The notes beneath the pieces were generated by a model that saw only the letters and a list, made by a program, of their open reading frames with translations, ran no database searches and was not told the origin of the DNA. Made by a program: the position numbers and the translations under genes. From a virus, in the IMG/VR virus record IMGVR_UViG_3300045988_137032, positions 197,693 to 261,692 of that record: a DNA stretch of 64,000 nt; one strand, 5' to 3'. Positions 40,895 to 58,090 of this stretch are shown here, piece after piece. Positions within the stretch are counted from its first letter, which is position 1. Every line of letters starts with the position of its first letter.

Positions 40895-42235
40895 TTACTT
40901 GAAAAGATGCATATCCTCCGAATAATCGTCCAAAGAAGAATACTCATCAGCGCCAGACGCTTTCAGTAAAGCTTTCTCAGCTTTCTTTTTCTTCTTCGTC
41001 TTGTCTTTCTTTTTCTTCTTGCTCACAAGCTCATCATAAGACTTACCGGCTTTCCGAGCTTCCCGACGCTTATCGAGTTCTTCGATACGCTTCTTCAGCT
41101 TCTTATGCTCTTTATCTTCCTGCTTGTGAATCTTCTCGAGCTTGCGTTCGGTCTCACTACGAGGATCCATGAATGCACGGATATTGAAACCGCCTTCATC
41201 CAGTGCATCACACATCTCAGCATACTCGGCGCTCTGAGGAGACTGATACTTATCACGATACAGGATAGAGCCATGAGTATACTGATAATGAACCAGATCA
41301 TCATAACGCTTATCCAAATCATCGAGACTGGTAATCGGACCAGTGATATCAGGACGATCATCATCGTGCCAAATACCACGCTTACGGTCTTCTTTCTCAA
41401 TCTCTTCGTAATCGTCTCGCTTATCGTAAATACCGCCAATGCCTTGTGCGGTGATACCTCTGGACTTATTCCTCTTGGAATCATCTTTGATTCTAGCAAG
41501 GATTGCATCCTGGGTTTCTTCGCCCATCTCGGCTTTGAACTTCTTACGGTCTTTCTTGTCATTGACAAAGACTTCAACCTCTGTCGGATGACCTTCATAA
41601 GCCCGCTGAAGACGTGCTTCGATTTCAGGATTCGGAAGAATATCATCGGACTCCAGTTCATCCACGACGCCATTGATGTTATTCATCAATTCCTTCAGAT
41701 CCTTATTGGGATCATCAATGAACTGACGGACATAATTCCAATCAATCGTCTTACGATTCTTTCCGATATACGTAGGATAAGTGATACCAACAACTGTGAC
41801 ATCACCATTGAATGCACGCTCCCAGAAATCTCCAACCTCATAAGAGCAGTTCTGTGTTGCAACAAGTGCCATACACTTATTGCACTGACGAACTGCTCTC
41901 ACATATTCGTCGAGCTTATTGATCTTACGCTTTATATTACGAAGCTTAGAAAACTCCTGGTAATAAGTTTGACGAGACTCTTTCTCACTATCAGTAAGAT
42001 TATAGTCATCGTCTTCGCCGTAGTCATGGACTGCAACATGATCCATCATCCTTTCCAATTCTTTACGTTCGTTGTCGGTCAGTTTACGGAGTCTGATTTT
42101 AACCGGTTCTTTACTCCGCCTCTGAGACCGTCTGACTGCATCTTCAGCTTCCATCTTTTGGACTGCGTCCTTATCAGAGGAAACGGTTTCTGATGCGGTA
42201 CCAAGGTTAAACACCAAGGTATCCAATTCGCTCAT
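40895..42235 (-). CDS. highly charged hypothetical protein (poly-Lys C-terminal tract)
   Basis: Start moved from TTG (42244) to the ATG at 42235 (AAGGAG SD 9 nt upstream). 'KKKKKDKTKKKKKAEK' near the C-terminus. Confidence 0.65.
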   Translation of the reverse strand: MSELDTLVFNLGTASETVSSDKDAVQKMEAEDAVRRSQRRSKEPVKIRLRKLTDNERKELERMMDHVAVHDYGEDDDYNLTDSEKESRQTYYQEFSKLRNIKRKINKLDEYVRAVRQCNKCMALVATQNCSYEVGDFWERAFNGDVTVVGITYPTYIGKNRKTIDWNYVRQFIDDPNKDLKELMNNINGVVDELESDDILPNPEIEARLQRAYEGHPTEVEVFVNDKKDRKKFKAEMGEETQDAILARIKDDSKRNKSRGITAQGIGGIYDKRDDYEEIEKEDRKRGIWHDDDRPDITGPITSLDDLDKRYDDLVHYQYTHGSILYRDKYQSPQSAEYAEMCDALDEGGFNIRAFMDPRSETERKLEKIHKQEDKEHKKLKKRIEELDKRREARKAGKSYDELVSKKKKKDKTKKKKKAEKALLKASGADEYSSLDDYSEDMHLFK

Positions 42236-42286
42236 TTTATTCAACTCCTTAGATTTTAAAATGTGTGTGATATGTCCTACCTACGA

Positions 42287-42297
42287 ATATAATATAT
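42287..42297 (-). promoter_or_regulatory. promoter-like core ATATATTATAT
   Basis: Exact core 51 nt upstream of the ATG at 42235, between the AAA+ gene and the charged-protein gene. Confidence 0.5.
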
Positions 42298-42305
42298 CAA
42301 TGAAT

Positions 42306-43613
42306 TTATTCCTTGAATTCCTTCATCTGCTTGTCGATGTTGGCAAGGCACATAGCCTGAAGCTTTGCAGGAGAATACTTAAAGGGTTTTGCTTCAAGTT
42401 CTTCCTTGCTCAAAACATCTTCCAGCTTAAGGTCATAGACTTTGCACATCTCACGAGCGAGTTCTTCGTCAAACTCATTCATCTGGATATGCAGGTCAAA
42501 GCGGCCATAACGCTTCACAGCAGGATCAAGTTTATCGTAGTAATTGGTAGTAGCGACACAGATAGAGACAGGATACATCAGACCATCATTCGCTTTAAAG
42601 AAGAAGGTGGGAGGATTATCAAGGAACGACAAAACATTTGCCATTGCAAGGGAATCCGTCTTGGATGCATTCTTGTCATCACGTGCTTTGCAAACACAGT
42701 CTATATCATCAATAGAATAGATGATAGGAACCAGTTCACCATACGGAGCACTGATGTTGGAACTGACCTCAAACTTATTGGGAGAGATCGGCATAATGCG
42801 ATGGATGCTGAGATGATTTGCAAGTGCCTGACAGAAAGTGCTTTTACCAGTACCAGGCTCACCATAGAGGATAACAGACAGCTTGGAAATCATGTTATAC
42901 TTCTTATAGAAGTAAGGGATATTATTGACCCAATTGTCAATATACTTGATAACCTTATCCTTATCTCTCATGACAAGGCTATCAAAGGATTTGAATACGG
43001 TCTTCTTATCACCACCGTAGTCATCATCAGAGCGACTAGAACTGATGAAATAATCGGAAAGAGATTTCTCAGATTCCTTGATAAACTTCTCCTTTTCTGC
43101 GATAATGGAATCAAAGACTTCTTTCCAGTTCTTACCGATAATCCAAATATCGAAATGAATCATCGAATCTGCATCATAATAAGATTTCCGATCTCCACCA
43201 GATTCAATGAAACTAGAAACCTTCAGATACAGATAAGTTTTCTTACCGGCTTTCACATAGTATTCACCAGCTTCCAGAGTATTCCGGACCATATCACGGA
43301 GATACTCGGAAACATCAGCACGGCTATTCTTAGGACCGCCAGTCTCATAATCTTCGAGCTCACGGCGGTGCTTTTTCAGCTCAGGATCCAACTCAATCAT
43401 ACGGGAGCATACGATCTTATAGAACATCGCTTCCGTAGTATCCTGAATCAAATATGGATTGTAATTGCCAGAGATTTTCTTGGCAAGGTTATTAGAAGCC
43501 AGCATAGGGAACTTGGGGGTCACTGTGCTGGCTTCTTCCTCTTCAGACCCTTCATCCGGATCATACAAATAGAGGTCAAAAATACGATCTTCGATACCTT
43601 GATACTTACGCAT
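42306..43613 (-). CDS. classic-clade AAA+ ATPase
   Basis: Walker A 'LYGEPGTGKSTF', Walker B 'IIYSIDDIDCV', second region of homology 'ATTNYYDKLDPAVKRYGRFD'. Confidence 0.85.
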   Translation of the reverse strand: MRKYQGIEDRIFDLYLYDPDEGSEEEEASTVTPKFPMLASNNLAKKISGNYNPYLIQDTTEAMFYKIVCSRMIELDPELKKHRRELEDYETGGPKNSRADVSEYLRDMVRNTLEAGEYYVKAGKKTYLYLKVSSFIESGGDRKSYYDADSMIHFDIWIIGKNWKEVFDSIIAEKEKFIKESEKSLSDYFISSSRSDDDYGGDKKTVFKSFDSLVMRDKDKVIKYIDNWVNNIPYFYKKYNMISKLSVILYGEPGTGKSTFCQALANHLSIHRIMPISPNKFEVSSNISAPYGELVPIIYSIDDIDCVCKARDDKNASKTDSLAMANVLSFLDNPPTFFFKANDGLMYPVSICVATTNYYDKLDPAVKRYGRFDLHIQMNEFDEELAREMCKVYDLKLEDVLSKEELEAKPFKYSPAKLQAMCLANIDKQMKEFKE

Positions 43614-43787
43614 AATAATTGTCTCCTTTCATGATGGACAGGTATTCTTAATCTAAAGAATAGTCAAGTGGTATTTACTTTTCCATTGAGTAACACTCAG
43701 CTAAAGGAACTACATAGGTTGGTATTCTATTTCTCCATATAAATTTGGTCTCCTTGTGTTGACAGGTGTTCAACTTGTGTCGAAAAA

Positions 43788-43836
43788 GTAAGTAGCGTAG
43801 TGATTGACTATTAACGTCTTTCACTACGCTACTTAC
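43788..43836 (-). terminator. intrinsic terminator
   Basis: 15-bp stem gtaagtagcgtagtg/cactacgctacttac, then TTTTT on the minus strand. 5 nt after the stop of 43842..44507. Confidence 0.7.
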
Positions 43837-43841
43837 CTTAT

Positions 43842-44507
43842 TTATGCATGGGAAAGTTCTTCCATCGGAACTTTCTGAGGAAGCTGGAAACCATCCACCT
43901 TGAGATATACGAAAGAAGGAGTAAGCTTCGAGAGCATCTGTGCATTAAACTTTCTGCTCTCAATTGCTTTTGCTTCAAACTTATCAAGGATAGATGTATC
44001 ACCATCGTAATCAAAATAATCCGCATATTCGTCCATGAACTTACGGTAATTACCATAAATCAGATTAAACGGGATTACGATGTTATCGGAAAAATGCACC
44101 ATCTGATGCAAAGACTTGGATAGAGGAATCAGTCCAACCATATTCTCGTAATGAAGCTTCATAACTTCATCAGAAATATAAAGCTCATTCAAGGGAATAC
44201 CATCTTTCAAAAACCGATTCAGTACGACATTCGTGATATCGTACAGGGTAAACGGTTCATGATGGATTTCGATACGAACACGGTTGCCATTTCCATTCTC
44301 TACGTTGTTAAAGAACGCGCAATGATTCATATCGACATACTCTTTCAAATACGAGATGTAATCTCGATATTCCATAGAAGAACGAATGGTACGCTCACAA
44401 CGCTTAATGAACTTAACTTTGTCTTTTGCATTATTGAGTGTAACTGTGTATTCCATATCTTCCGGAGCTTCGAAAGTACGTGTTACAATTCGATCAATTC
44501 CAGGCAT
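43842..44507 (-). CDS. HNH-like (His-Me finger) protein, paralog of 33718..34392
   Basis: 'MNHC...RVRIEIHHEP...KLHYENMV...LHQMVHF'. 'FIKRCERTIRSSMEYRDYISYLKEYV' matches 'FIKGCERMVRTSDRYSKYIYYLKNVI' in the paralog. Confidence 0.5.
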   Translation of the reverse strand: MPGIDRIVTRTFEAPEDMEYTVTLNNAKDKVKFIKRCERTIRSSMEYRDYISYLKEYVDMNHCAFFNNVENGNGNRVRIEIHHEPFTLYDITNVVLNRFLKDGIPLNELYISDEVMKLHYENMVGLIPLSKSLHQMVHFSDNIVIPFNLIYGNYRKFMDEYADYFDYDGDTSILDKFEAKAIESRKFNAQMLSKLTPSFVYLKVDGFQLPQKVPMEELSHA

Positions 44508-44570
44508 ATAAATCAGCTCCTTTCACATAGACTAATGAATCTAAGGTCTTTAATAAGCTGTTTCTTAGCC

Positions 44571-45215
44571 TTACTTCTTAAACCAGTCTAACATCTGGAT
44601 GGTAAAGACTTCAAACTCATCTGGTACAAATTCTACCCAATCAGACTCAGGATCATATCCTTCCGGTTGAATTGTTTCACCGCGCTGTGGTGTACCACAT
44701 TGAGTATTGAGTTTCCATGCGGTTTCATATCCAAGATCATACAGAGCCTTTTGTAATTTGTGCTTGAATATCCACGGACAACTCCATACCATGTCATCAG
44801 AAATAAATCCTGCAAATTGGCATGCTTCGAGATTGTCACATACTCCTTCCATCTCAAGAATTTCATCCGCAGTAGCAAGGATGGTAAATGCTTTGGACTT
44901 ATCTGATCCATCATCTTTTGTAGAGCAGATATTGCCATCTTCGTCAACATATTTTGTATTTAGAGGATAATACTGAAGAAGCTTTCCTCTATTATCGGGA
45001 GTATTCGCAAATATTTTCCAGTCATCATTATCCATTCCTTTTGATACTTTCTCAATGTATAAGGACATATCTCTTTGAGATATAAACTCATCTCTGAGTT
45101 CCTTATCATTCGTGAATGCTAAAAGAGGATGGATATCCTCTGTGGTTGCACCTGCTTTCATACATCTACGAATATTCTCATTCGTATTCTTTCGGTAGAA
45201 CTTCCAAATCTTCAC
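44571..45215 (-). CDS. paralog-family protein, member 1
   Basis: GTG start (AAAGGA SD) overlapping the upstream gene by 38 nt; an ATG at 45161 is an alternative start. Shares 'LLAFTNDKELRDEFISQRDM' and 'KALYDLGY' blocks with the family. Confidence 0.6.
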   Translation of the reverse strand: MKIWKFYRKNTNENIRRCMKAGATTEDIHPLLAFTNDKELRDEFISQRDMSLYIEKVSKGMDNDDWKIFANTPDNRGKLLQYYPLNTKYVDEDGNICSTKDDGSDKSKAFTILATADEILEMEGVCDNLEACQFAGFISDDMVWSCPWIFKHKLQKALYDLGYETAWKLNTQCGTPQRGETIQPEGYDPESDWVEFVPDEFEVFTIQMLDWFKK

Positions 45216-45855
45216 GTCGAATCAATCCTTTCCGTAATAAAGGTCTGAATAAATCAAGATAGCATATATAAGAATCCGCATATAATTCAATGGCATCTCC
45301 ATAGCCGTCTGTAGAAATACCATAGCTATCATTGTCATATATCATGGTAGGGTCGTCCGCAGTTTGAATTCCATAATAATAGGTGTAACGCAATCTATCA
45401 AGAGCAGCATGATATTCTCCTTTAAACATATTTGGTGGATATACACTGAGATCAAATAATTGATCTACAGCAAATGTCTCAGATGTTTCATGAAGATCAT
45501 ATGCTTCTGCTTTTGTAATATACATAAACCCATCATCATCGGGATAATAGTTTTCAACCAACTGCTTTTTGAATCTAGCATACTCATGACGTATCTTGAA
45601 TTCTTTATATTCAGACTTTGTCATTTCTACTTCATATCCTTTGAATAACTCCATATTATGGAGAAATTCAAACTTTGAAGCAAGTTTCTTTTTCGTTGTC
45701 CATGCGTACAGATACATCATGTATCCGTCATATTGCTTACTCGTAAGCTTCTTAAAGATTGTGCTTATATAGAGAAAGCATTCTTGCTGCCATCTATCCA
45801 GAGTATTCGTAAAATCATCTGGTAGTGTCAAATAATAAATATAAACGGTTATCAT
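45178..45855 (-). CDS. paralog-family protein, member 2
   Basis: ATGA start/stop overlap with the upstream member. 'LYAWTTKKKLASKF', 'FKGEYHAALDRLRYTYYYG'. Confidence 0.65.
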   Translation of the reverse strand: MITVYIYYLTLPDDFTNTLDRWQQECFLYISTIFKKLTSKQYDGYMMYLYAWTTKKKLASKFEFLHNMELFKGYEVEMTKSEYKEFKIRHEYARFKKQLVENYYPDDDGFMYITKAEAYDLHETSETFAVDQLFDLSVYPPNMFKGEYHAALDRLRYTYYYGIQTADDPTMIYDNDSYGISTDGYGDAIELYADSYICYLDLFRPLLRKGLIRREDLEVLPKEYE

Positions 45856-46373
45856 ATTAAATCACCTCCTATCACATCCAATACGATATTCCAAGTATTT
45901 CTCTCATAACAGGATTTTGCATATTGGTCTAATATACTGGAATCACTCTTATCTCTTACAAAGTTACCCAATACGTAATATAATAAATCAGCAAGAGCTT
46001 CCCTATATTCGCCAATAAATGGTGGAATTGGTTTGAATCCATGCTGATGACATTCACTCATAAAGATTCTCATGGATTTATTATGGATGAGATTATACTC
46101 TTCTACTGTAATCGGAATATTGAAATGAAAGACTTCATGATTTTTATCTACACCAAGTCCTTCATACAACATCAATTTTGCATCGATATATCGAGATACA
46201 AATCCATTATACCATTCTTGGGTTTCTTCATGACGTGCTATTTTGTACTTACACATTTTTCGTGTACATTGAAAAGCTTCTTTCAAATCTTTTTCTGTTG
46301 TATAAGCATACACTTTCCATATATCATTATCTTCGGAATACCGATAAATAATCCAGAATTTAATAAGTTCCAT
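45852..46373 (-). CDS. paralog-family protein, member 3
   Basis: AAAGGAGG SD. Promoter-like core 26 nt upstream. 'VYAYTTEKDLKEAF', 'FIGEYREALADLLYYVLG'. Confidence 0.65.
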   Translation of the reverse strand: MELIKFWIIYRYSEDNDIWKVYAYTTEKDLKEAFQCTRKMCKYKIARHEETQEWYNGFVSRYIDAKLMLYEGLGVDKNHEVFHFNIPITVEEYNLIHNKSMRIFMSECHQHGFKPIPPFIGEYREALADLLYYVLGNFVRDKSDSSILDQYAKSCYERNTWNIVLDVIGGDLI

Positions 46374-46399
46374 AATAAACCTCCTTTCATATTCTATTT

Positions 46400-46410
46400 A
46401 TATAATATAT
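46400..46410 (-). promoter_or_regulatory. promoter-like core ATATATTATAT (paralog array)
   Basis: Exact core 26 nt upstream of the ATG at 46373. Context: TTTATATATTATATAAATAGAATATGAAAGGAGG. Confidence 0.55.
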
Positions 46411-46539
46411 AAATATGGGTATCAGATAAAATTTAAAAGTAATAGACCTATCGTATTAAGAGCCGAAGGCGTATCTAGCATATCTTTCATAAAGTAATAG
46501 AAATAGACGTAATAAATATAAATCATGGGGTCTGGGACA

Positions 46540-46895
46540 GAGGTAAAAATATACGGACAGTTGACACTTTCTATTCTAATAGAAAAGATCAATACTGGCC
46601 GTATATTTTTGGCTCTCTGAAGTCCCAGGGCCCGTCCGGCCTGAGGACATTTCAAACGACAAGATATATTAATTATATTATTTATATAAGAATACCGGTA
46701 GAATGGATTCTCATCCATTCTACCTCTCATTTCACTCCTACCGGAATAGTCGCTCTCGCTCCTATTCCTTTCGCCATGCGTAGATGGGTTTTGGGCCTCC
46801 GCTTGGCTCCGGCCGTCACCCATCTACTGGCGAATAGGAGCTCATTCGTATTCTATTATATTATTATCAAATAGCGAAATCTGCGTGATTTCTTT
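46540..46895. ncRNA. candidate structured non-coding RNA region (unclassified, strand unresolved)
   Basis: GC-rich patches in AT-rich non-coding DNA with stacked helices. 12 bp: 46545-56/46599-610. Hairpin 46622-46649. 11 bp: 46697-707/46714-724. ~84-nt irregular hairpin 46758-46841 (helices of 10+4+10 bp). Hairpin 46876-46892. Confidence 0.35.
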
Positions 46896-46947
46896 CAGAT
46901 AGGGAAGCCGAAGGTTTGGTGGCGGCATATATAATATTATTATATAG

Positions 46948-47294
46948 TCACTAAACCGTGAAATGAAATCGCTAGTTTCAATTAATCAATTGAATTTTTT
47001 GCATTTTTAAAATTGAGCTACTCACTAAACCGTGAAACGTTTTGTCCCTAGGAACACTAGAGTTTACAAAAAGGCACTTTCGTGAAGTCAATAAATTAAT
47101 TGAGTTCGCAAAAATATTTCATTTCACGGTTTAGTTATTACACGGTTTAGTGAGTAGAAAATAGCCCTGGTCTTCTTGCGGAAATGGACCATTCCATTTC
47201 ACGGTTTAGTGAGTAGCAAATGTCATTTTTGACAAAAATCGGCCAAAAACGCCCGTTTCATTTCACAGTTTAGTGAAATGAAACGGGCGTTTTT
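46948..47294. repeat. cluster of six iteron-like 15-22-bp repeats (core CACTAAACCGTGAAATG)
   Basis: Plus-orientation copies at 46949-46965 and 47023-47037. Minus-orientation copies at 47120-47135, 47141-47157, 47195-47216 and 47259-47275. The last is embedded in the 22-bp hairpin. Confidence 0.8.
47245..47294. terminator. 22-bp perfect hairpin, bidirectional-type terminator
   Basis: aaaaacgcccgtttcatttcac-agttta-gtgaaatgaaacgggcgttttt. 2 nt after the stop of 47297..48529. Contains one iteron copy. Confidence 0.8.
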
Positions 47295-47296
47295 AT

Positions 47297-48529
47297 TTAA
47301 GCAAATGCACTAGATCGCTTGAGTAGATATAAAATCGGCTCTGTGTTAACTATGGATCTAGTCGGATATCTAGTTGACTTTTTATTGTATAAATCCGAAT
47401 AATATTGACCAAGCTCATTTATGTCAATAATAATGACATTATTCGACTTCAAGTCGCAGACATTAATATTCGATGATAAATCTATTATCTTCGAATTTCT
47501 ATGTCCAAAAACTGATCCAGCATATAAATCAATTATAAAGTTACAGCGCAAATATCCACCCAATAGTATATTCAAAATAGGCAATAATTCTTTTCCAGGA
47601 TTTGATACATAGTCCCTAACGTATTTAGCATCTGAGAAACAAACTCTAATTTGAAGAGTTCTGTCTATATCAGTTATACTATCGAAGTTTTGTACTGACC
47701 TATAATATCTATCAGCTGCATCGCTACCACATTTTCTGCGTATCTTCTTTAATGCATGATTATGGAAGTATTCCTTCATATCATATATACCTACAGAAAT
47801 ATGCTTTGAATGCGGTCCTTCTTTGGTTGGATCATTGAATTCAACTTTCCAGACGCTATTATCGTCTTTAGAATTACATTGAGTTATTCCATTCGTTAAT
47901 CCAATCAAACGATTATATCCAATATAAAATCTGTGATAGTCAGGCATAAGCACATTAGCAGATACTACGATATTCTTAATTTTTACATATTTTGGATTGA
48001 TTGTACAACCGCTCGGATCAAATAAGTATTTTGATGTCTCTTCACCAAAAACCATATCAAATAGAAACTTTATGTTTCTATTCTTTGTATCTGATTCTGC
48101 ATTATATAATGAATCGTAATATGTATTATTATCGGAATTTATCCCACACAATAATGAATTCTGTGAATCGTCATCATATAGATTAATCGGATTTACGTTA
48201 AGAAATTCCACATCAACTTCTGTTCTAAAATAGTATTTATCCTTCCTCGATTTCTTATCATCTGATTTATAATATACACGAGGCCTTGGATACCTTATAA
48301 GAATTCCAAACTTATTGCAAAATAGATAGAAATAGGGATCGTTTGGATTCCTTGGTTTAATTCCTCTTATGAAAGAGGAATTAAAATCATTCAACATTTG
48401 AGAAACGTGATTATAATAATTACTCACAAATTGTTCTTTCGTTAAATGGATTACCATATCAAAGGATGAGATTGCCGGGTCTGAATATGTATCTGAGGCA
48501 TATGCGAAATTCTTTGAGCCTATATTCAT
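47297..48529 (-). CDS. AT-rich orphan protein (410 aa) inside the non-coding island
   Basis: Strong AAAGGAG SD 8 nt upstream. A perfect 22-bp hairpin begins 2 nt after the stop. Markedly more A/T-rich and N/K/Y/I-rich than surrounding genes. Confidence 0.7.
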   Translation of the reverse strand: MNIGSKNFAYASDTYSDPAISSFDMVIHLTKEQFVSNYYNHVSQMLNDFNSSFIRGIKPRNPNDPYFYLFCNKFGILIRYPRPRVYYKSDDKKSRKDKYYFRTEVDVEFLNVNPINLYDDDSQNSLLCGINSDNNTYYDSLYNAESDTKNRNIKFLFDMVFGEETSKYLFDPSGCTINPKYVKIKNIVVSANVLMPDYHRFYIGYNRLIGLTNGITQCNSKDDNSVWKVEFNDPTKEGPHSKHISVGIYDMKEYFHNHALKKIRRKCGSDAADRYYRSVQNFDSITDIDRTLQIRVCFSDAKYVRDYVSNPGKELLPILNILLGGYLRCNFIIDLYAGSVFGHRNSKIIDLSSNINVCDLKSNNVIIIDINELGQYYSDLYNKKSTRYPTRSIVNTEPILYLLKRSSAFA

Positions 48530-48803
48530 TTTAAGGACTCCTTTCAGATTGATTTGGTCGTTAGTTTGGGGAGATAAGAAGCATTTGTGAGTTTTTATTT
48601 ACTATGATCACTACATTATCGTAATGATATTACGTTTACTCCTTTATTTGATTGACTTCGGTTGGTTAAATAAAGGCTTTACATTTTCACCTTTCATTGG
48701 TGAATTTGTATTGCTGTCATGAGCTCTGCTTATGATATTCATTGTGGATGAATGTTTTTGGAGCCAACCATAAATATTAGTTCGTGGTGAAAAATGTTAT
48801 ATC

Positions 48804-48857
48804 ATTAAATGAGCACTGAAGTATTTAACCCTTAGCTTCAGTGCTCATTTAATTTTT
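48804..48857. terminator. 18-bp hairpin in non-coding DNA
   Basis: attaaatgagcactgaag/cttcagtgctcatttaat with a T-run on the plus strand. No obvious plus-strand gene upstream. Confidence 0.5.
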
Positions 48858-49076
48858 AATATTAGCTGTACATACTTGTAATCGGTGTAGTTGTCATGAT
48901 ACCATAGAATAAATGCTCTTGGACACCGATCGACGGAAAGTGCTAACTAATTTAGTTAGTTTGATTAAGCGTATACCCGGCATTAATCAAATAGATTTCT
49001 ATTACTTTTTGTCCGACTTCAGGGGGAAAACAAGAGCCAATTGGAAGATCTGAAGCTAAGAAGCTAAGCAGATACG

Positions 49077-49211
49077 ATGAAAGAACGGGAAAGAAAAGAA
49101 GAAAGACAGAGAAAGAAAAGGAATAAAAGAAGAAAGAAAGATAGAAAAAGGAAGAGGAAAAGAATGAGATCGACAGAAGACGTCGACGAAATCCTCTTCC
49201 AAGTTGGCTGA
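49077..49211 (+). CDS. possible 44-aa Arg/Lys-rich peptide encoded by the polypurine tract
   Basis: My own translation: MKERERKEERQRKKRNKRRKKDRKRKRKRMRSTEDVDEILFQVG. The stop overlaps a hairpin plus T-run (49208-49235). No clear SD. Confidence 0.2.
   Translation: MKERERKEERQRKKRNKRRKKDRKRKRKRMRSTEDVDEILFQVG
49079..49169 (+). repeat. polypurine (A/G) tract, ~91 nt
   Basis: By my count only about five pyrimidines on the plus strand across this span (aagaacgggaaagaaaagaagaaagacagagaaagaaaaggaataaaaga...). Confidence 0.8.
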
Positions 49212-49459
49212 CCAGACATGTGGTCAGATTTTTTACCGTAATTTTGAAAAAATTCCATCTACTAGAATCCGAATTTATTTTTCAGATTTTTAGTAGATGG
49301 AAAATTTTTATAGTCTTTTTTGGTTAATTGATTACTACTAATAGATATATGCATGAAAAATATGAAAAAACGTGTTAAAGAAAAATCGAAAAATGTAACT
49401 AAACCTTCAATTTGAAGGAAAAGTAAAAATTCGTAAATTTCAAGTTTGAAAAAGTTTGA

Positions 49460-49533
49460 TTTTTATATCTAAAATCCGAAATTTTAGATATAAAAATAGA
49501 GTAACCGAGTTTTATTTACCTCAGTTACTCTAT
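49460..49533 (-). terminator. tandem hairpins after 49544..50503
   Basis: Hairpin B atagagtaac.../...gttactctat (49496-49533) and hairpin A, a 16-bp stem tttttatatctaaaat/attttagatataaaaa (49460-49496). Confidence 0.7.
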
Positions 49534-49543
49534 TTTTGTCAGC

Positions 49544-50503
49544 TTAAGATGCGGAGAAATTTTTATCCGGATCAGAATTTTCATCCTTAGCAGTACCTGC
49601 CATGGGAAGATTCTTAACCCAAGTTTCGAGACTCTGCATGTACTTCTCTTTCCACTTGCTCATCTGATTCGGATCATCGTTTTCGGAAATCGGCTTGACA
49701 TAAAGTGCCTTGAAACCGTTCTCCATAACCTTCCACTCCCAATACTTCGGAGTAGTATTGAAGCGATAATTCTTTGAGAATACGATTCTTGCAGAAGAAG
49801 CTGTCTTACCGTTGATAACACCGTCTTTATTTTTATCCCGCTTGAAATGGGAATCCATATAACCGGGAGAAGAATACTTCACACGATAACCCTTGCCCTC
49901 AAGATCAAGCACGATATGCTTAATTGGATCTGGAGTCTTCTCATTGGAATCATCTTTTTTACCAGATTCATCAGCTTCAAAGATAGTCTTCCACAGAGGG
50001 TCTACAAGATTGGTTGCTGTATAAGCCATCCTAAGTTCATCTCCTTTGATAGTATTTACAGATTCTTTGAAATGCTTCGGCAAGTATTTCTTTAGTCTGT
50101 TTTTATCTCCAACCATATCCGGTTGAATATGATATTCATGCATTTTCTTAATGATTGCTTTAGCCAACTGTTTTTCATGAGGTTTATCCACATGGTTAAA
50201 CATCCGAATTGCAAGAATGACATGCTTCTTATCTGGCATGGGATATTTCTTTAATTCAGGAATGCCGAAATCTTCTTCTTTTACCTTACTACGATCAATG
50301 GAAGATTCATTCAGGTTTACTAGTTTACTTAAAGCTTCATTGCTTGTATTGATAAAATCGGTAGCATTCTTTGCATCGAATTCCATTCTCGGTAAATGGC
50401 CCGTTAAAGGAATCACAGGAAGCATAGCTCCAACGGAGAATTCTTCCAATTCATCTTTGGAAATATCTAGATCAGAATCATCGTATATATCGATATTATC
50501 CAT
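49544..50503 (-). CDS. hypothetical protein
   Basis: AAAGGAGAG SD; 319 aa. Contains 'DFGIPELKKYPMPDKKHVILAIRMFNHV'. Double hairpin terminator downstream. Confidence 0.7.
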   Translation of the reverse strand: MDNIDIYDDSDLDISKDELEEFSVGAMLPVIPLTGHLPRMEFDAKNATDFINTSNEALSKLVNLNESSIDRSKVKEEDFGIPELKKYPMPDKKHVILAIRMFNHVDKPHEKQLAKAIIKKMHEYHIQPDMVGDKNRLKKYLPKHFKESVNTIKGDELRMAYTATNLVDPLWKTIFEADESGKKDDSNEKTPDPIKHIVLDLEGKGYRVKYSSPGYMDSHFKRDKNKDGVINGKTASSARIVFSKNYRFNTTPKYWEWKVMENGFKALYVKPISENDDPNQMSKWKEKYMQSLETWVKNLPMAGTAKDENSDPDKNFSAS

Positions 50504-50699
50504 ATTTCATTTACTCTCCTTTCTTGATTGCTGATTATATAAGTGTGAAATAAACCCTACACAAATTCCGGACGAATGGAATTGTGTAGGGTTTATTTTC
50601 ATAGGAATACACACATTTTGGAATTGAAAAATGATGGAGAACAAAGCTTGGCAGTGCAACTGCTACTGAAGCTCTACCATATTGTCACATCATTTATTA

Positions 50700-51893
50700 T
50701 TAATCAGAGGAAATCGTTAAGTAGTGCTTTACTTTCTCTGGACTCATTTCCTTATGGTATTCTGTATTTAAGAAGTTTGATACTTTATCTTCGGTAGATA
50801 AGTTTGGATCAAAGATGAAACCATATTTATTCTTCATCTCATTTAGAACCTCTTTATCTGCTTTATACTTCACATCGGAAGTATCATTATCGATTTTGAT
50901 CTTCACAGAAGAATTATCTCGATAGCGTTCACTAAGAACTTTCTTGAATGCAGCATCGTTTTCGTATCCATCAGGAAAATTGAATACATATCGAGTATGC
51001 TCAATACCGAGATCTTTCATCGTTTTATCTCTACGATTCATTTCATCAATCAAATCATCTGTAGATGAGAAAAGCTTTTCATTAGCATTAAATGAAATAG
51101 TCATATACTTTGGAGCAAGTTCATTCTCAATGAATTCATGATGGAAGTATAACTTCTTTGGATTGCATGTAATATGATAGAAGCCTTTAGGAGTTTCTTC
51201 ATTGAAGCACCATCTAGTGTAACTTCCACAGTAATACACAGATTCATCTACTTCAGAATTCACATGATAATGACCGAAGTATACTTCTCCTCTGCATACA
51301 TTTTCAAGTTCTTCCGATGAGAATGTAGGAACCCGTTTCCGAGTACCATCAAACTTTGCTGGAGATAAAGCAATCATAATATCTGTAATGATACCATGGC
51401 CAAAGATATAATCATACTCTTTATCAGAATACAGATAATCTCTGTAAGTATCTTCTTTTGATAAGATGTATTCTTCTGGGATATAAAGCACTTTCATATC
51501 AGGTAGTAATTCTTCATCAGATACAGAATGAATTACTTTGAAATCAATATCCGTTCTATTTTCATAAATACTGAATACTGTATATTGATTTACTTCATGA
51601 GATTCTGTTCCATAGACGATTCTAATAGGACAGTATTTTCCAATCTCTGGTTTATGGTTTTTCTTTGCAATTTTTACGATCTTATCCATAAGAGAGATTG
51701 CAAAAGATGATGCATCTTCTCCAAGGGTTAATCTGTGATCAAAGTAATCACCAGAAATAATAATGAAATCAAGTTTTTCAAGGGTTTCGATATAATGGAT
51801 GAATACTTCATCCAATTCATATTTCAAATGAGTTGTATCTACTGCTCCGATATGGATATCAGCAATTACAACTCCTTCATAGTTTGTGCTCAT
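50700..51893 (-). CDS. Mre11/SbcD-like metallophosphoesterase nuclease (T4 gp47-like)
   Basis: Calcineurin-fold motifs 'ADIHIG', 'GDYFDH', 'GTESHE', 'IFGHG', 'FGHYH'. Confidence 0.75.
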   Translation of the reverse strand: MSTNYEGVVIADIHIGAVDTTHLKYELDEVFIHYIETLEKLDFIIISGDYFDHRLTLGEDASSFAISLMDKIVKIAKKNHKPEIGKYCPIRIVYGTESHEVNQYTVFSIYENRTDIDFKVIHSVSDEELLPDMKVLYIPEEYILSKEDTYRDYLYSDKEYDYIFGHGIITDIMIALSPAKFDGTRKRVPTFSSEELENVCRGEVYFGHYHVNSEVDESVYYCGSYTRWCFNEETPKGFYHITCNPKKLYFHHEFIENELAPKYMTISFNANEKLFSSTDDLIDEMNRRDKTMKDLGIEHTRYVFNFPDGYENDAAFKKVLSERYRDNSSVKIKIDNDTSDVKYKADKEVLNEMKNKYGFIFDPNLSTEDKVSNFLNTEYHKEMSPEKVKHYLTISSD

Positions 51894-51980
51894 AATCTCA
51901 CCTCATGTATTAGGGTTAAGATTACGTAAAGTAGAAAATAGACTAGGATAGCAGAATATACTATCCTAGTCTATTTAAGT

Positions 51981-52574
51981 TTAAGCACCCATAATCACAC
52001 AGAGTGTGGTGGACTTGATCTTACCTGCATTCCAATCAGTGTCGTATGCAGACATAGAAGCATATGCAGAGAAGCTCTCAGTTGCTGCGGTAGCAGCATT
52101 CTTAGCTTCAGCAGCTGCTGTCTTTGCAGCATTTGCCGTAGTGGTTGCAGTTGCAGCAGCAGTCTTAGCGGCATCAGCAGTGGACTTTGCGGTATTTGCA
52201 GTGCTAACTGCATTGGATGCAGCAGTAGATGCAGAAGTAGCCGCTTCCTTAGCCTGAGTTGCTGCAGTAGAAGCTGCATTAGCAGTCTTAACAGCAGCAT
52301 CTGCGGAAGTCTTAGCCGTATTTGCAGTACTCAGTGCAGTATCGGCATTAGACTTCGCTGTGTTTGCAGTGCTAGTAGCAGTCTCTGCCTTACTTGCAGC
52401 AGTAGAGATGTTACTTTCCATCGTCTTGACTTTTGTGTCAAGTGTACCACCACTACCATCACTCAGGACGATCAGAGAGCTCAGGGTACGGGGAAGAAAC
52501 GGTGTCTTACCAGTAATATTACCAGCGCTATCAAAAACCTTCTGGTAGAGAACGCCCATATAGGCATTAGCCAT
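51981..52574 (-). CDS. Ala/Thr-rich heptad-repeat fibrous protein
   Basis: About 14 consecutive heptads of pattern A-[NDTS]-[TA]-A-x-x-x ('ANTAKSN ADTALST ANTAKTS ADAAVKT ...') between globular ends. Confidence 0.65.
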   Translation of the reverse strand: MANAYMGVLYQKVFDSAGNITGKTPFLPRTLSSLIVLSDGSGGTLDTKVKTMESNISTAASKAETATSTANTAKSNADTALSTANTAKTSADAAVKTANAASTAATQAKEAATSASTAASNAVSTANTAKSTADAAKTAAATATTTANAAKTAAAEAKNAATAATESFSAYASMSAYDTDWNAGKIKSTTLCVIMGA

Positions 52575-52600
52575 AATTATATTACCACCTTTCGTTTAGA

Positions 52601-53581
52601 TTACATTACACGAGCCAGTTCTGAATAGAAACGATTGATGCTCTTTGTATTTTTTATGATATCGTTAAGTGCCGCCTGACTGATCAGGAAGGTACTCAGA
52701 ATCACGTTTTCAATCACAAAGAATACATAAGGGAGATAATCGATACTCAGAATTGAAGAACCGTGATATGTTTTAATATATCTCTCGATATAATACCTGA
52801 GATTCAGATTACTCATTCTCGGAGAAAGGTTCTTAATGAATCCCAGCAAATCGGAGATAGATTTGATTTCAGCTTTGCCATAATCATCATCAAGCATATT
52901 CAGCTCGAAGTTATCCACAAAGTTTAACCCTTGTGCAGCATAGCTGGAAGTCAAAGAAGGATTGGGATATTCCCACAGTCTCTCCAGATAGAATCTCTTT
53001 ACGCAGTAAGTCACTTTGTCATAAAGAGCTTTATCCAGAGTGAGCGCATATTCCTTATTCAGAATACGTGTCATCATCTCGCTATACACAGTAGCAGTGG
53101 TTGTCATGAGCTCTGAATTCTTCATCACCTTTACAGGATCTGTCTGAAGCTTCAAAGCAATATACGCACCTTCCATAAGACCATAAAGTTGTTTTGCAGG
53201 AATGACAAGTTCTTCATCGTTCTTCATGGTGGCAAAAGCATTCACAAAGATCGTTGATACAACTTTACCATCCGCTTTACGTCTCACAATGAAAGGGAGG
53301 GCGACACCGACTTTATCTGTATTATTCCAGAGAATTTCGATGTCTCCATTGTTAAAGGCTTCCAATACTTTCTGTGACAGAGGAGAGATACTAGATCCAC
53401 GTTTGATCGTAGCATACTGGTCTTCGATATAAGACTTTTCAAGTGCGACGCCATTGGAAAGATACTTAACGATCTTTTCAACAACGCCATTCGCTTGATT
53501 GAATGTCTTATACACGAGGGAATCTTCCAACGTATTTTCACAGACGTAATCTTCGTCTGTTAAGAATCGTGAAATATCCAT
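52601..53581 (-). CDS. hypothetical protein
   Basis: AAAGGAGA SD; 326 aa. Confidence 0.7.
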   Translation of the reverse strand: MDISRFLTDEDYVCENTLEDSLVYKTFNQANGVVEKIVKYLSNGVALEKSYIEDQYATIKRGSSISPLSQKVLEAFNNGDIEILWNNTDKVGVALPFIVRRKADGKVVSTIFVNAFATMKNDEELVIPAKQLYGLMEGAYIALKLQTDPVKVMKNSELMTTTATVYSEMMTRILNKEYALTLDKALYDKVTYCVKRFYLERLWEYPNPSLTSSYAAQGLNFVDNFELNMLDDDYGKAEIKSISDLLGFIKNLSPRMSNLNLRYYIERYIKTYHGSSILSIDYLPYVFFVIENVILSTFLISQAALNDIIKNTKSINRFYSELARVM

Positions 53582-53665
53582 GTATATCTCCTTTCTATAG
53601 GTTATTTACTTAGCTAAGTAAGTGACTTACCCTATTGTTTTTAAGGGGTATTTTAGGGATAAAAA

Positions 53666-53691
53666 AGAGACTGCGATTTCTCGCAGTCTCT
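53666..53691 (-). terminator. intrinsic terminator
   Basis: 11-bp stem agagactgcga/tcgcagtctct, loop tttc, then T6 on the minus strand. Confidence 0.8.
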
Positions 53692-53718
53692 AAAATTATC
53701 CGATTGGAGTAACCTAGA

Positions 53719-54720
53719 TTAGATACCAAGCTCAGCCAGCATAGCGTCCAGATCGAAATCATCGGAAGACTCAGTGATAGGATCACCATCAATGATCTGA
53801 TTTGCGCGTTCACTGGTGGGATTATCCAGCTCGTTCTGAATCATGGTCCTTGCAATTCGATCGAGTTCAGGAATATCCTCCTGCTTAAATCCAAGCTCGA
53901 CAAGTTTTGCGCGATGAGAAGGAGTCGTGGGAGAATTATCAGTTGTGTTTACCTGAGGTTCTGCCGCAGCTGCCATTGCACCGGCGTAATCTGTCTTACT
54001 CGCATTGCTCTTTCCAGAAGGAGGCAGCTGACCTGCAGGCTGCTTACCAGCGCCGAGCTGCTTCTGAGCTTCCTTAGTAACCTGGGTATCGGCAACCTGG
54101 AGCTTACGGAGCCACTCACGGATTGCCTTCATGATACCAGACTCCTGGATCTTGGGAGGAAGCTTGGAATAGATCTTATCAACGAGCTTCTGGAAACCAG
54201 TGCTCACCTTCAGAATCTTCTTGTGGATATCATCAGCACGCTTCGTGACAAACTTATTACCAGCGAGGATTGCACCGGTACCTGCAGCGCATGCAGCGAG
54301 AGTCTTAGCGATACTCACAAAATCAGCATTTGCAGCAACCGCATTCACGAGGTTAGAAGCCTTATCAAGAGCCTTATCAAAAGCTTCGCTGATACGGACG
54401 GTCACAGGCTTCTTCGGAAAAAGCTTGTTCTTGATAGCATCAACGATCTTCTTGACCCATGCCTTGAACTTCTCCCAGACAGCCTTAACCTTCTCGCCGA
54501 AAGTCTCAGCCTTCTTCTCAAGAGCAGTGAATTCAACATTACCGTTTGCGCACTCAAGGGCGACATTCATGAAGTCAGAACGAATGGCTTCGCTCTCAGC
54601 AACAATGTGGTCACCCTCCATGTTAAGGACGGATTCCAGCATATCCTGGCAGGTCTCACGAGAGATCTCATTGTTCTGATATGCTTCGAAAATGGAAACA
54701 CGCAGCTTATCAAATGTCAT
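53719..54720 (-). CDS. hypothetical helical A/K/E-rich protein (scaffold-like composition)
   Basis: Start moved to the ATG at 54720 (AAAGGAGA SD). Acidic C-terminal peptide 'SSDDFDLDAMLAELGI'. G/C-ending codon class. Confidence 0.65.
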   Translation of the reverse strand: MTFDKLRVSIFEAYQNNEISRETCQDMLESVLNMEGDHIVAESEAIRSDFMNVALECANGNVEFTALEKKAETFGEKVKAVWEKFKAWVKKIVDAIKNKLFPKKPVTVRISEAFDKALDKASNLVNAVAANADFVSIAKTLAACAAGTGAILAGNKFVTKRADDIHKKILKVSTGFQKLVDKIYSKLPPKIQESGIMKAIREWLRKLQVADTQVTKEAQKQLGAGKQPAGQLPPSGKSNASKTDYAGAMAAAAEPQVNTTDNSPTTPSHRAKLVELGFKQEDIPELDRIARTMIQNELDNPTSERANQIIDGDPITESSDDFDLDAMLAELGI

Positions 54721-54888
54721 AAGTAAAATCTCCTTTACTATTAGATTTTTCATAAGAATTTACTTAGGACATGAAAGCCCTAAGTAGTTTCAATTGGTTA
54801 ATTAGCTGTTTTACTTAAAAATGTGAAGACTTGTCAAACCTCTATATAACATCTGTTTCCACTCTTCATGTTATCGAGGTGATTTGAC

Positions 54889-55698
54889 ATGAAAAACTTA
54901 CTCTCTATTACTCTTATTCCATTATTATTCATTTTCTTTTCTCTGGATGTAAATTACACTCCAGAAGGTGGATTGGTATTTGATACCAATTACACAGAGA
55001 AATCAATATCCATCATATCACAGTATTCTTCCACACAAACTATTTCTGATACCGATCTATCTTATCTGAAGAGATTTGGCGAAAGTAGATTTTATGATAC
55101 TTGGTTATCTTCTTTGAAAGATAGTATTGGTTATCTTGATGAAGAAAATGATTATACGAGTGTCGTGAATACAGCTACGAATTTCTATAATCTCTATAAG
55201 ATGCTCTATCCGGATTCTGATAAAGTGTCAGAGCTTGGATCATATATCCAGAAAGGTGAAGAGCTCACACAAGCTATTTCTACAATAACCGAGGATACAT
55301 CCAATATCATCAATAATTATTCCAATTATCTTAAGGGAGCTACTGTAAAAGTAAATGGTAGGTTTAATAATAGTGAGCAATATCTATATGCTAAGTATAT
55401 GAATCTTACTTATGGATATTACTTAGTTACTTTTACAAATATTCCAAATGAGTCATTTGATGGAACTATCATCTTAGCTATTCCTGAGAATACTCAGGTT
55501 AGAATTGGTAATACTTATACATCTGATATCGTTCTCTTTAATGACACGGAAAATGATATGGATGGAAAATCTTATCAGTGTGGAATCTCTGTAGATGGTA
55601 CAGAATATGAGAATCAAGTAAGTGAGTATGAAGATAACTTAGTTGATCTTTATATTACACTTCCTACACAGATTATTAATCTTGTGAGAATGATGTGA
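54889..55698 (+). CDS. secreted or membrane-anchored hypothetical protein
   Basis: N-terminal hydrophobic 'LLSITLIPLLFIFFSL'. GAGGTGA SD. Confidence 0.65.
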   Translation: MKNLLSITLIPLLFIFFSLDVNYTPEGGLVFDTNYTEKSISIISQYSSTQTISDTDLSYLKRFGESRFYDTWLSSLKDSIGYLDEENDYTSVVNTATNFYNLYKMLYPDSDKVSELGSYIQKGEELTQAISTITEDTSNIINNYSNYLKGATVKVNGRFNNSEQYLYAKYMNLTYGYYLVTFTNIPNESFDGTIILAIPENTQVRIGNTYTSDIVLFNDTENDMDGKSYQCGISVDGTEYENQVSEYEDNLVDLYITLPTQIINLVRMM

Positions 55699-55710
55699 GT
55701 TTACAAAAAA

Positions 55711-55746
55711 AGAGAATGCCTATTGTGGATAAGGCATTCTCTTTTT
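55711..55746. terminator. bidirectional terminator between convergent genes
   Basis: 11-bp stem agagaatgcct/aggcattctct, flanked by A7 and T5. Confidence 0.75.
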
Positions 55747-55747
55747 A

Positions 55748-56425
55748 TTATACCCGGAAGGTTCCTCCATAAAGGAACATGAATACTTGGAACTCATCAA
55801 TGATGAATTGGGACTTTATGTCAATGGCATCGGTCATAGCAATTTCAAAATCAGAATAATCAATCATCTGACCAATGACATCAATCGTATTCGTCAGAAT
55901 AATAGATTTTTCATTCCTGAATAGATTTGCTACTTTTGCATACCAAAGACGTTGTAAGGCCTTGTAGTATTCTTCATTGAAGATATCTGCTGGATATTTG
56001 ATTTTTAATAGTCCCCATAATCCATCGGATAGAGTAACAGAATTCTCAGATTCAAATTCTGTACTTATGATGGATATTGGTGTTACAAGGTCTTCTGATT
56101 CTTCATCTTCGTTTCGTGTATAGTACTTCCGGTCTTTCAGTTTGCAATAGGAATCTTTTCCTCCCATAAAACACAGCGCGTCGGATTCTTTCATCTCACA
56201 TTTCTCAATGATGAATTTATCCATATCACGTTGTGATTTGAATAACTTATAAAGAGGCTTGTTGTCGGTGATTGCATATAGCATTGGACTTGAGCTCATA
56301 TTATCTATCTTAAGATCACAATGCGTTGCATATGCGGTATCACCTGTTATGGGTGGTAATCTTAGTGCTTCACTTGAAAGTGTGCAAGTCCTTGGCTTAA
56401 GATAAAACTTGTATATAGTTTTCAT
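55748..56425 (-). CDS. paralog-family protein, member 4 (distal copy)
   Basis: Start moved to the ATG at 56425 (GGAGA SD). 'LYAITDNKPLYKLFKSQRDM', 'FNEEYYKALQRLWYAKVAN', 'IIDEFQVFMFLYGG' match the 44.6-46.4 kb array. Confidence 0.6.
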   Translation of the reverse strand: MKTIYKFYLKPRTCTLSSEALRLPPITGDTAYATHCDLKIDNMSSSPMLYAITDNKPLYKLFKSQRDMDKFIIEKCEMKESDALCFMGGKDSYCKLKDRKYYTRNEDEESEDLVTPISIISTEFESENSVTLSDGLWGLLKIKYPADIFNEEYYKALQRLWYAKVANLFRNEKSIILTNTIDVIGQMIDYSDFEIAMTDAIDIKSQFIIDEFQVFMFLYGGTFRV

Positions 56426-56488
56426 AAGATATATCTCCAAATAAAAAATATGCAGGGAGAATTCATACTTCTCCCTGCATATTTATCG

Positions 56489-56920
56489 TTATGTGATAGC
56501 TCCGTGATATGCAGTATCCATATTCTTTAATTCTTTCAGAGTAGGTAAATCTGGAACTTCTCCAGATTCAATCATCTCATTCAGAATCATTGCAGCACGT
56601 ATAAGAATCCTTGCATCTCTGTCATTTATTTCACGATGCTTATCAGATACTTCCCGCATGATTACTTCAACTGCATACTGAAGATCATTATCACGATCCA
56701 TAGATAGATCTTTCACGGATCTATAGTATTGCGCTGGTACATAGGAATCTCCATATCGTACCAATTCAAGATCATCTATTATCGATTGATCTAAGCATTT
56801 ACGCTTTACTTTAACGATTGCAGACGTATGATCTTGGTTATCCATTCTGAACTTCTCAACACGATCGATATCAGAACTCACTGCAACCAGCCTATGTTCA
56901 CTGTCGATCACACCATACAA
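56489..56920 (-). CDS. hypothetical protein
   Basis: TTG start with AAAGGAG SD 10 nt upstream; the start codon is uncertain. Confidence 0.55.
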   Translation of the reverse strand: MYGVIDSEHRLVAVSSDIDRVEKFRMDNQDHTSAIVKVKRKCLDQSIIDDLELVRYGDSYVPAQYYRSVKDLSMDRDNDLQYAVEVIMREVSDKHREINDRDARILIRAAMILNEMIESGEVPDLPTLKELKNMDTAYHGAIT

Positions 56921-56950
56921 TATCCATCAACTCCTTTCGTTATATAATTA

Positions 56951-57418: not shown

Positions 57419-57482
57419 ATGATACTACACGACCTTTCAAGGGATGATCTAAGAAAAACCATTTTATTTTTCCTAGTCTAAT

Positions 57483-57493
57483 ATATAATATAT
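57483..57493 (-). promoter_or_regulatory. promoter-like core ATATATTATAT
   Basis: Exact core 64 nt upstream of the ATG at 57418. Confidence 0.5.
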
Positions 57494-57519
57494 AATTAAA
57501 TTCATTGAAACAAATAAAT

Positions 57520-58084: not shown

Positions 58085-58090
58085 TTTGTT

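Follow-up and report, generated by a model that had tools for sequence, protein, structure and literature searches.

The six short repeats clustered at positions 46945-47276 of the analyzed stretch of viral DNA (64,000 nucleotides, hereafter the window) represent the "type A" version of a polymorphic array of sites that travels as one cassette with V, a fast-evolving orphan gene. The explanation that we favor, tentatively and as somewhat less than probable, is an accessory, allele-specific pair made up of the DNA-binding protein V and its cognate site array, the two arms of which would be bridged. The initial annotation had proposed the cluster as a candidate origin, centromere or packaging site. 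Its description as an array of sites has stood, whereas an essential cis-acting role has not, the array being absent or replaced in close relatives: because it is optional and replaceable among phages with 93-99% identical flanks, it is, judging from these sequence comparisons, very unlikely to be the essential replication origin, the packaging site or the tubulin centromere of the phage.

By its gene content, the window belongs to a jumbo phage distantly related to AR9/PBS1. A 221-aa protein (43842-44507) belongs to phrog_12252 and retrieved by tblastn only the jumbo phages AR9, PBS1, phiR1-37, Listeria LPJP1 and Staphylococcus S6-like, at 36-42% identity. Other genes of the window code for virion proteins, for two subunits of topoisomerase II and for a PhuZ-like tubulin homologue (27445-28596, 19 kb from the array), and the ribosome-binding sites are of the Gram-positive type. 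A tRNA scan and an Rfam 15 search of the window found no tRNAs and no match at gathering score, respectively, and a permissive Rfam scan of 46300-49600 returned only hairpin-type chance matches. Comparison of the locus with INPHARED phages (megablast and blastn) and PLSDB plasmids (blastn) retrieved nothing.

The repeated element is 22-26 bp long, with a core TCACTAAACCGTGAAATG and an internal dyad, TCAC-N6-GTGA, read from the sequence, whose half-sites are separated by one helical turn in each repeat; the extended consensus obtained with a repeat finder and by sequence reading is (C)TAC-TCACTAAACCGTGAAATGAAAT (22-26 bp). A search of the whole 64-kb window with CACTAAACCGTGAAATG, allowing up to three mismatches, gave exactly six sites, at 46949 (plus strand, no mismatch), 47023 (plus, one), 47120 (minus, one), 47136 (minus, two), 47195 (minus, none) and 47259 (minus, one), where 0.19 sites were expected from shuffled sequence and no shuffle reached six. 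Six converging repeats, two on the plus and four on the minus strand and seen nowhere else in the window, were what the initial annotation had described, and both points hold: there is no further copy. Its coordinates were also right overall, the exception being the fourth copy, which aligns best at 47136-47152 or 47137-47161 and directly abuts the third.

On the plus strand lie copy 1 (TAGTCACTAAACCGTGAAATGAAAT, 46945-46969), kept in the relative L043 and missing in L048, whose array has a single plus copy compared with two in the window, and copy 2 (GCTACTCACTAAACCGTGAAACGTT, 47017-47041), complementary to copy 5 at 21/21. The minus strand carries copy 3 (reverse complement AACTAAACCGTGAAATGAAAT, 47116-47136), which is decayed in L043 (CATTTCACACTTTTATTA), copy 4 (reverse complement TTTTCTACTCACTAAACCGTGTAAT, 47137-47161), copy 5 (reverse complement GCTACTCACTAAACCGTGAAATGGAAT, 47191-47217) and copy 6 (47255-47276), which lies within a terminator hairpin in the window and in the hairpin loop in L043 and L048, where the stem sequences are different. 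Start-to-start spacing is irregular (74, 16, 59 and 64 bp), and the copies converge in two arms, of two and four sites, around a center of ~80 bp. As had been claimed, the array lies in non-coding DNA; the ORFs that overlap it are at most 37 aa long, and none of them has support. Between the window and L043 the iteron cores are identical at 120/130 positions (92.3%) and the spacers at 178/220 (80.9%). A single 22-26-bp consensus, a dyad in every copy and cores better conserved than spacers bear out the description of the cluster as an iteron-like array of oriented sites.

Several other elements are interspersed with the copies. The last copy had been placed in a perfect 22-bp hairpin ending the adjacent gene, and the arms were confirmed (47245-47266 and 47273-47294, with a 6-nt loop); this hairpin (47245-47294) begins 2 nt past the stop codon of the minus-strand gene V, is flanked by an A-run and a T-run, and scores as an intrinsic, bidirectional terminator at the 3' end of V. 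Recurring AT-rich words in the spacers, another feature of the earlier description, are present as the palindromic words TCAATTAATCAATTGA (46978-46996, between copies 1 and 2) and TCAATAAATTAATTGA (47085-47103, in the central spacer), the latter kept in L043 and L048, and the spacer at 46960-47016 is 78-82% AT compared with ~66% in this region of the genome. A palindrome named C (CCCTAGGAACACTAGAG, 47044-47063) has a perfect form, CCCTAGGAACACTAGGG, in L043 and L048; its family is also interleaved with the type B and type D arrays described below, and it had no match in IMG/VR. A truncated C-like element (AGCCCTGGTCTTCTTGCGGAAA, 47161-47182) lies between copies 4 and 5 according to a by-eye comparison with the C repeats of L045, and was not recovered by substitution-only matching. 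The same holds for supposed "relics" of type B and type D repeats seen by eye in the window spacers, which were discarded. One further copy of the C-like palindrome stands alone between two genes at 63003-63030.

Immediately upstream of copy 1, an AT-rich stretch on the plus strand (46927-46947), a putative promoter, contains ATATATAATA, one mismatch away from the decamer ATATATTATA. This decamer has 12 exact occurrences, mostly immediately 5' of genes, which fits an early-promoter motif used by the phage itself and agrees with the AT-rich early-promoter motifs of ~10 nt of phages with virion RNA polymerases (PMC7598289). The copy at 46401-46410, on the minus strand, is probably the promoter of the block of genes that lies left of the array. 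A scan for sigma-70-type promoters gave a number of sites not above that in shuffles.

The behavior of the locus in related phages carries most of the argument. About 20 versions of the intergenic island were compared, on contigs gathered from relatives of V and from the cluster of a neighboring 173-aa protein, and the flanks of the compared phages are 93-99% identical to the window. The IMG/VR relatives L002-L006 show 85-92% protein identity. In L002 (77% identical), window segments 42001-46438 and 48878-51998 align by blastn to adjacent stretches, and the intervening 2.44 kb (46439-48877) are absent, with ~20 bp in their place; in L003-L006 an inversion breakpoint falls at exactly 46434. From this deletion and this breakpoint, the array is recognizable as part of a recombination-prone, hypervariable intergenic island, bordered by the early promoter (46401-46410) on one side and by a gene terminator on the other, which across relatives shows insertion, deletion, replacement and inversion. 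Within it, blastn boundaries delimit an exchangeable cassette of ~1.7 kb (46856-48591) comprising the array, the terminator, V and the V leader; in L045, L068 and L072 another version replaces it as a whole, between flanks that are 92-99% identical.

The contents of the cassette differ among these phages as follows: (i) the window, L042/L043 and L044 carry the V alleles v1/v2 and a type A array; (ii) L045, L072 and L068 carry v3, 27% identical to v1, and a type B array (TTGCGAAAATGCTCGTAT), an unrelated repeat, also converging and interleaved with the C palindrome (GACCCTRGTCTTCCTAGGGCTTCGCG), L068 having a 90.6% v3 sub-allele and the same variant, GCTCGTTT, in its plus and minus copies; (iii) L055 carries v6 (~30% identical) and a mosaic array of A, B and D pieces, with type D (GTAACGAAAATGTACCCTA) adjoining the gene and single A and B pieces farther off; (iv) L046 and L054 carry v4 and v5, respectively, on the opposite strand and no array; (v) L048 carries v5 (21% identical, opposite strand) and a type A array; and (vi) L050-L053, L070 and L002 have neither V nor an array. 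The type A array is therefore missing in L050-L054, L070, L002 and L046 despite flanks 77-99% identical. Wherever V is on the minus strand and tail-to-array (three allele groups, eight contigs), the array type follows the V allele, and all three array types (A, B and D) have converging copies and interleaved C palindromes and start right after the terminator of V. The exchange of three array types among near-identical genomes, as read from these contigs, is a distinctive feature of the locus.

A strict one-to-one co-variation of V and array is contradicted by L048 (v5 with type A) and was abandoned. We retained a weaker form, because L048 still contains a remnant of the 3' end of v1 and for this reason seems to be a recent gene replacement, and because three independent contigs pair v3 with type B. 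The v4/v5 alleles would have no need of an array, since v5 stands beside type A in L048 and beside none in L054. The allele-to-array association has to be read with the caveat that adjacency alone could yield it, since linked sequences recombine together.

The plasticity of the region would also suit repeats that are by-products of recombination, with no dedicated binding partner: short modules consisting of promoters, terminators and palindromes would have been duplicated or inverted and shuffled from one phage to another, their only "function" being transcription punctuation and the promotion of cassette exchange. Shuffling of this kind, mediated by PeSLs, has been described for T4-type phages (PMC2839356). 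Like the PeSL cassettes (PMC2839356, PMC4122927), the locus occupies a hypervariable intergenic island with conserved blocks on either side, phages ~95% identical differ there by the gain, loss and replacement of orphan genes, and the junctions carry stem-loops and AT-rich, promoter-like stretches. The promoter and terminator bounding the island, the insertions, deletions, replacements and inversions seen across relatives, the mosaic of A, B and D in L055 and the lone C-like palindrome at 63003-63030 all speak for it. We nevertheless consider this explanation quite unlikely. PeSLs form one family of a composite promoter and stem-loop motif dispersed in many copies, whereas type A is found only at this locus in 64 kb and the three repeats are unrelated, locus-restricted and each accompanied by one V allele; the cores are better conserved than the spacers; and the same converging layout for three unrelated types beside three V alleles is unexpected of passive debris.

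The convergent layout, with several sub-terminal sites on each side, and the presence/absence polymorphism among relatives could likewise be taken for the multi-site ends of a small, possibly nested, non-autonomous transposable element (MITE-like, or with ends in the style of Tn7 or Mu). This is extremely improbable, given that the repeats occupy a single locus in 64 kb, that no target-site duplications occur at the cassette boundaries, that V matches no transposase family and that the polymorphism boundaries coincide with the edges of the cassette or the island and not with the outermost repeats. Nor did database scans reveal other copies of the element: a search of IMG/VR for the type A 17-mer and one of GTDB (one genome for each of 185,579 species) for the 20-mer returned a single chance match apiece, present in one copy, and the motif is not in INPHARED or PLSDB. 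By this distribution, the type A motif was neither taken over from a host or a plasmid nor is it a mobile element with dispersed copies.

A different reading places the function in RNA. The array would be the body of an early plus-strand non-coding RNA of ~340 nt (46950-47294), in which the converging copies pair into a long, nearly perfect double-stranded hairpin, so that the repeats matter as helix arms and the transcript acts as an RNase III substrate, or as a decoy, trigger or sponge for a host factor. The array is indeed free of ORFs; a stretch one mismatch from the early-promoter decamer abuts copy 1, in L045 and L055, too, the first repeat adjoins a comparable AT-rich stretch, and a strong terminator ends the unit. 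The predicted fold reaches -125.8 kcal/mol (z = -12.5), although so extreme a z-score is trivial for any inverted repeat. Plus and minus copies share their changes in L068 and L055 (GCTCGTTT / AAACGAGC), as helix arms would, and the adjacent 160-nt element is clearly a conserved structure. Against this, the copies are unbalanced (two versus four, and one versus four in L048), and all of them share one sequence, which a helix does not require. Single-base variants would produce a plus-strand U-G pair in copy 2 of L043 but A-C in copy 6 of the window and copy 5 of L048, so neither strand is consistently favored. Furthermore, the asymmetric C element is oriented oppositely with respect to the putative promoter in the window and in L045, the promoter match is imperfect, and no Rfam family matches. 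On balance we regard an RNA as an unlikely explanation, though still a serious one. The one shared sequence, the dyads, the conserved cores and the same layout in three array types point to repeats recognized by a sequence-specific factor rather than through mere complementarity.

The best candidate for such a factor would be V itself. The gene (47297-48529, minus strand) has a strong ribosome-binding site and encodes a hypervariable orphan of 410 aa. No sequence-family match was found in Pfam, PHROGs or PDB, and neither tblastn against phages nor an IMG/VR search with V or its family alignment retrieved anything; the few relatives came from large protein searches and are 98% (P0001), 70% (P0002) and 21-28% (P0003, P0004 and P0005) identical. 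An AlphaFold model built from five sequences reached a pLDDT of 75.5 and a pTM of 0.81, and replaced an earlier one from three near-identical sequences (pLDDT 33), which was not used. The best PDB match of the model was yeast TBP (probability 0.85, E 0.035), and among 23 matches in BFVD at E≤1e-3 were a viral putative TBP, VETF-large-subunit-like proteins and two Inoviridae "Rep/G2P" models. The predicted fold thus weakly resembles a TBP-like DNA-binding saddle domain, a hint rather than an assignment because the TM-scores of the matches are low (0.2-0.36). The conserved V motif RFYIGYN, which we took to resemble the active-site motif of Rep_trans rolling-circle initiators, was dropped as such, no Rep_trans structure being among the top PDB fold matches. 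V is consequently not recognizable as an initiator from Pfam, PHROG or PDB sequence matches, and its fold similarity is weak.

In the pairing of V and array that we favor, each 22-26-bp repeat would be the binding site of a sequence-specific DNA-binding protein, with V as the best candidate, acting as a dimer, as is suggested by the TCAC/GTGA half-sites lying one helical turn apart. The protein would join the two-site and the four-site arms in a looped or paired complex with the DNA, leaving between them the ~80-bp center, which carries the shared C palindrome and the AT-rich palindromes. Such a complex would serve an accessory, allele-specific function, and not that of an essential origin, packaging site or centromere, since phages that are otherwise near-identical lack the cassette. 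The array may act as an accessory origin or as an incompatibility-type site; candidate roles would be replication from an auxiliary origin that has its own initiator, incompatibility or exclusion between co-infecting relatives, or local regulation. The pairing found in L048, the irregular spacing, the weak fold matches and the lack of a sequence family for V count against this model, and the upstream promoter-like stretch together with the downstream terminator would fit a non-coding transcript as well. A more far-reaching version, which we find rather doubtful, is that V and its array constitute a previously undescribed allele-specific cassette of jumbo phages, a "protein plus cognate multi-site DNA" unit in which V, through a TBP-like fold, would assemble on its own converging array, conflict between relatives infecting the same cell would drive the diversification of the specificity types A, B and D, and the role would be that of an auxiliary origin served by a private initiator, or of an incompatibility/exclusion determinant.

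The literal reading of the cluster as a replication origin, a packaging site or a tubC-like centromere of the tubulin operon draws on its clustered oriented repeats (six copies within 332 bp of non-coding DNA, where at least three clustered 17-22-bp sites are expected of an iteron origin), on the 78-82% AT spacers and on the PhuZ-like tubulin gene in the window. For an origin, dispensability is compatible with an auxiliary role, since T4 and similar phages tolerate the loss of individual origins. We still judge the literal reading to be very improbable. The initial annotation had itself named absence of the motif from the syntenic region of relatives as an outcome that counts against it, and this is what the comparison gave: the array is absent from L050-L054, L070, L002 and L046 and replaced in L045, L068, L072 and L055, which is at odds with the conservation of a pac or cos site among close relatives that have the same packaging machinery; no terminase gene was located in the window. 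No cumulative GC-skew inflection, as expected of a principal origin, occurs near 47 kb, no DnaA box (≤1 mismatch) was found in 46400-47300, and the copies lack the direct, helically phased spacing of iteron origins, two being on the plus and four on the minus strand at irregular intervals. Mixed orientation and the abutting copies 3 and 4 likewise disagree with a CRISPR array, in which direct repeats of at least 23 nt alternate with unique spacers in a single orientation.

A link to the tubulin operon, which had been raised at the outset, fared no better. The tubC site of type III TubZRC systems (pBtoxis, phage c-st) is found without exception immediately upstream of tubR, as a series of direct repeats (PMC6009700). 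The locus resembles it in its ~350 bp of non-coding DNA, in having two kinds of short repeats in two blocks and in the presence of a tubulin homologue in the same phage, but the array lies 19 kb from the tubulin gene, its copies are inverted and convergent, and it is not inherited together with the operon: contig ERZ27242401:k141_424234 has the tubulin gene and an identical 190-aa tubulin-operon protein, and its island has no array.

Iteron-like arrays and protein-site specificity cassettes are already known. Initiator-iteron specificity modules have been described as the lambdoid O/ori pair, in iteron plasmids, and in the pT181-family Rep proteins, which combine a conserved nick hairpin with a divergent specificity repeat. 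The V-array cassette is like them in having a cluster of 17-26-bp sites beside a gene, with AT-rich spacers, in that gene and sites are exchanged and diverge together between near-identical replicons, and in that a second element (here the C palindrome) is common to all specificity types. It is unlike them in that V matches no Rep family, DnaA box and skew signal are lacking, the sites converge and are irregular instead of direct and helically phased, and the module is dispensable and lies downstream of its gene. In sites of the lambda cosB, SPP1 pac and P1 parS type, oppositely oriented protein sites flank a bend; these sites are essential, conserved in relatives and adjacent to the gene for the protein that binds them (terminase or ParB). 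By analogy, the converging sites around a ~80-bp spacer suggest a bent or looped complex here too, although the array is optional and no terminase or ParB gene is adjacent. Distinctive of the present case are its occurrence in an AR9/PBS1-like jumbo phage and an orphan partner with a possible TBP-like fold in the predicted model.

We know of no cis-acting site (origin, pac, partition or exclusion) established in jumbo phages with their own RNA polymerases; to our knowledge, replication initiation and inter-phage competition in AR9/PBS1-like phages are essentially unknown, and most of their hypervariable orphan genes are without a role. If the more far-reaching version proves true, the V-array cassette would be the first cis/trans specificity module in these giant phages. 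A hypervariable orphan gene can here be matched to a candidate target in the DNA that varies along with it, which makes for a testable hypothesis, and a tidy iteron cluster in a phage genome turns out not to be necessarily an origin, a centromere or a packaging site, which guards against mis-annotation. As for the 160-nt element that neighbors the array, clearly a conserved structure, a 24-mer taken from it has no match in IMG/VR and occurs in the JGI metagenomes on one truncated contig.

The array of repeats adjoins V (47297-48529, minus strand), a member of an orphan gene family comprising at least six alleles that share 21–30% mutual identity. Conserved motifs of the family include SFD(L/M), NINPxNL, Y(H/P)(R/K)FYIGYN and SVFGxxN. 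All V alleles occupy the same hypervariable intergenic island, on either strand, and V is absent in some phages. In contrast to V, the genes around it are 93–99% identical, and between the window and the related contig L043 the V DNA is just 60–85% identical where the genomes reach approximately 90–97%. In the relatives L003-L006 (72% identity), the block matching window positions 46434-60619 (right end approximate) is inverted, and the breakpoint at 46434 falls exactly where the variable island begins on its left side.

Directly left of the array, positions 46690-46851 (about 160 nt) form a structured element, with paralogous copies in L043:4975-5134, L048:6940-7099, L049:368-538 and L050-L055. 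The islands of relatives hold elsewhere a second paralogue (copy B), which is 81% identical. Between copies A and B, 12 of the 49 predicted base pairs are changed on both sides and none is broken; for instance, GGTAGAATGGAT/ATCCATTCTACC is found versus GGAGAGTCAGAT/ATCTGACTCTCC, and GTAGATGGGT/ACCCATCTAC versus GTAGAAATGC/GCATTTCTAC. Because the element had no match in Rfam and contains no G-U pairs, it may work as RNA or as DNA, and from either strand. Besides, the first hairpin of the B copy at L053:4236-4406 has its loop and closing pairs as the reverse complement of what every other copy shows (GATGGGAATC versus GATTCCCATC), which is the signature of a hairpin-mediated inversion.

A block at 46525-46660 is conserved, with 97–99% identity in relatives; it contains an inverted repeat with 23-bp arms (46539-46561/46594-46616) enclosing a smaller palindrome, followed by a GC-rich hairpin (46620-46655). 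The 133-aa ORF called across this block (46422-46823) is probably spurious. Another extended region without genes, at 48878-49540 (about 660 bp), includes a purine-rich tract with AGAAAG-type repeats (approximately 49060-49180). It is 70–92% conserved in L002, L045 and L046, while in L043, L048 and L050-L055 a GC-rich structured segment and a B copy of the structured element stand in its place.

The window contains twelve exact copies of ATATATTATA, most of them preceded by T/G and located just upstream of genes: at 7978, 10998, 15390, 17585, 28644, 42288, 46401, 57484 and 62085 on the minus strand, and at 62079, 62118 and 63972 on the plus strand. Presumably, it serves this phage as its early promoter motif, for the virion RNA polymerase. 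A near-consensus form (GATATATTAT) precedes copy A of the structured element on the plus strand in relatives. In the tubulin operon region (25739-28653), the motif at 28644 is followed by the gene for a PhuZ-like tubulin (383 aa), a 346/331-aa gene and the gene for a 190-aa basic Cys-rich protein; neither a small TubR-like gene nor a repeat block was found upstream of the tubulin gene in the window. Three tandem minus-strand genes downstream of an early promoter (44571-46373; 214, 225 and 173 aa) look by eye like diverged paralogues, with motifs in common near residues 20–45.

Finally, a solitary palindrome (AGCCCTGGATTTACTAGGGCTTCA, 63003-63030) resembling the C element, the palindrome interleaved with the array repeats, lies between two plus-strand genes; therefore, the C element may not be particular to the arrays, but a hairpin with a general role in punctuation or regulation in this phage.
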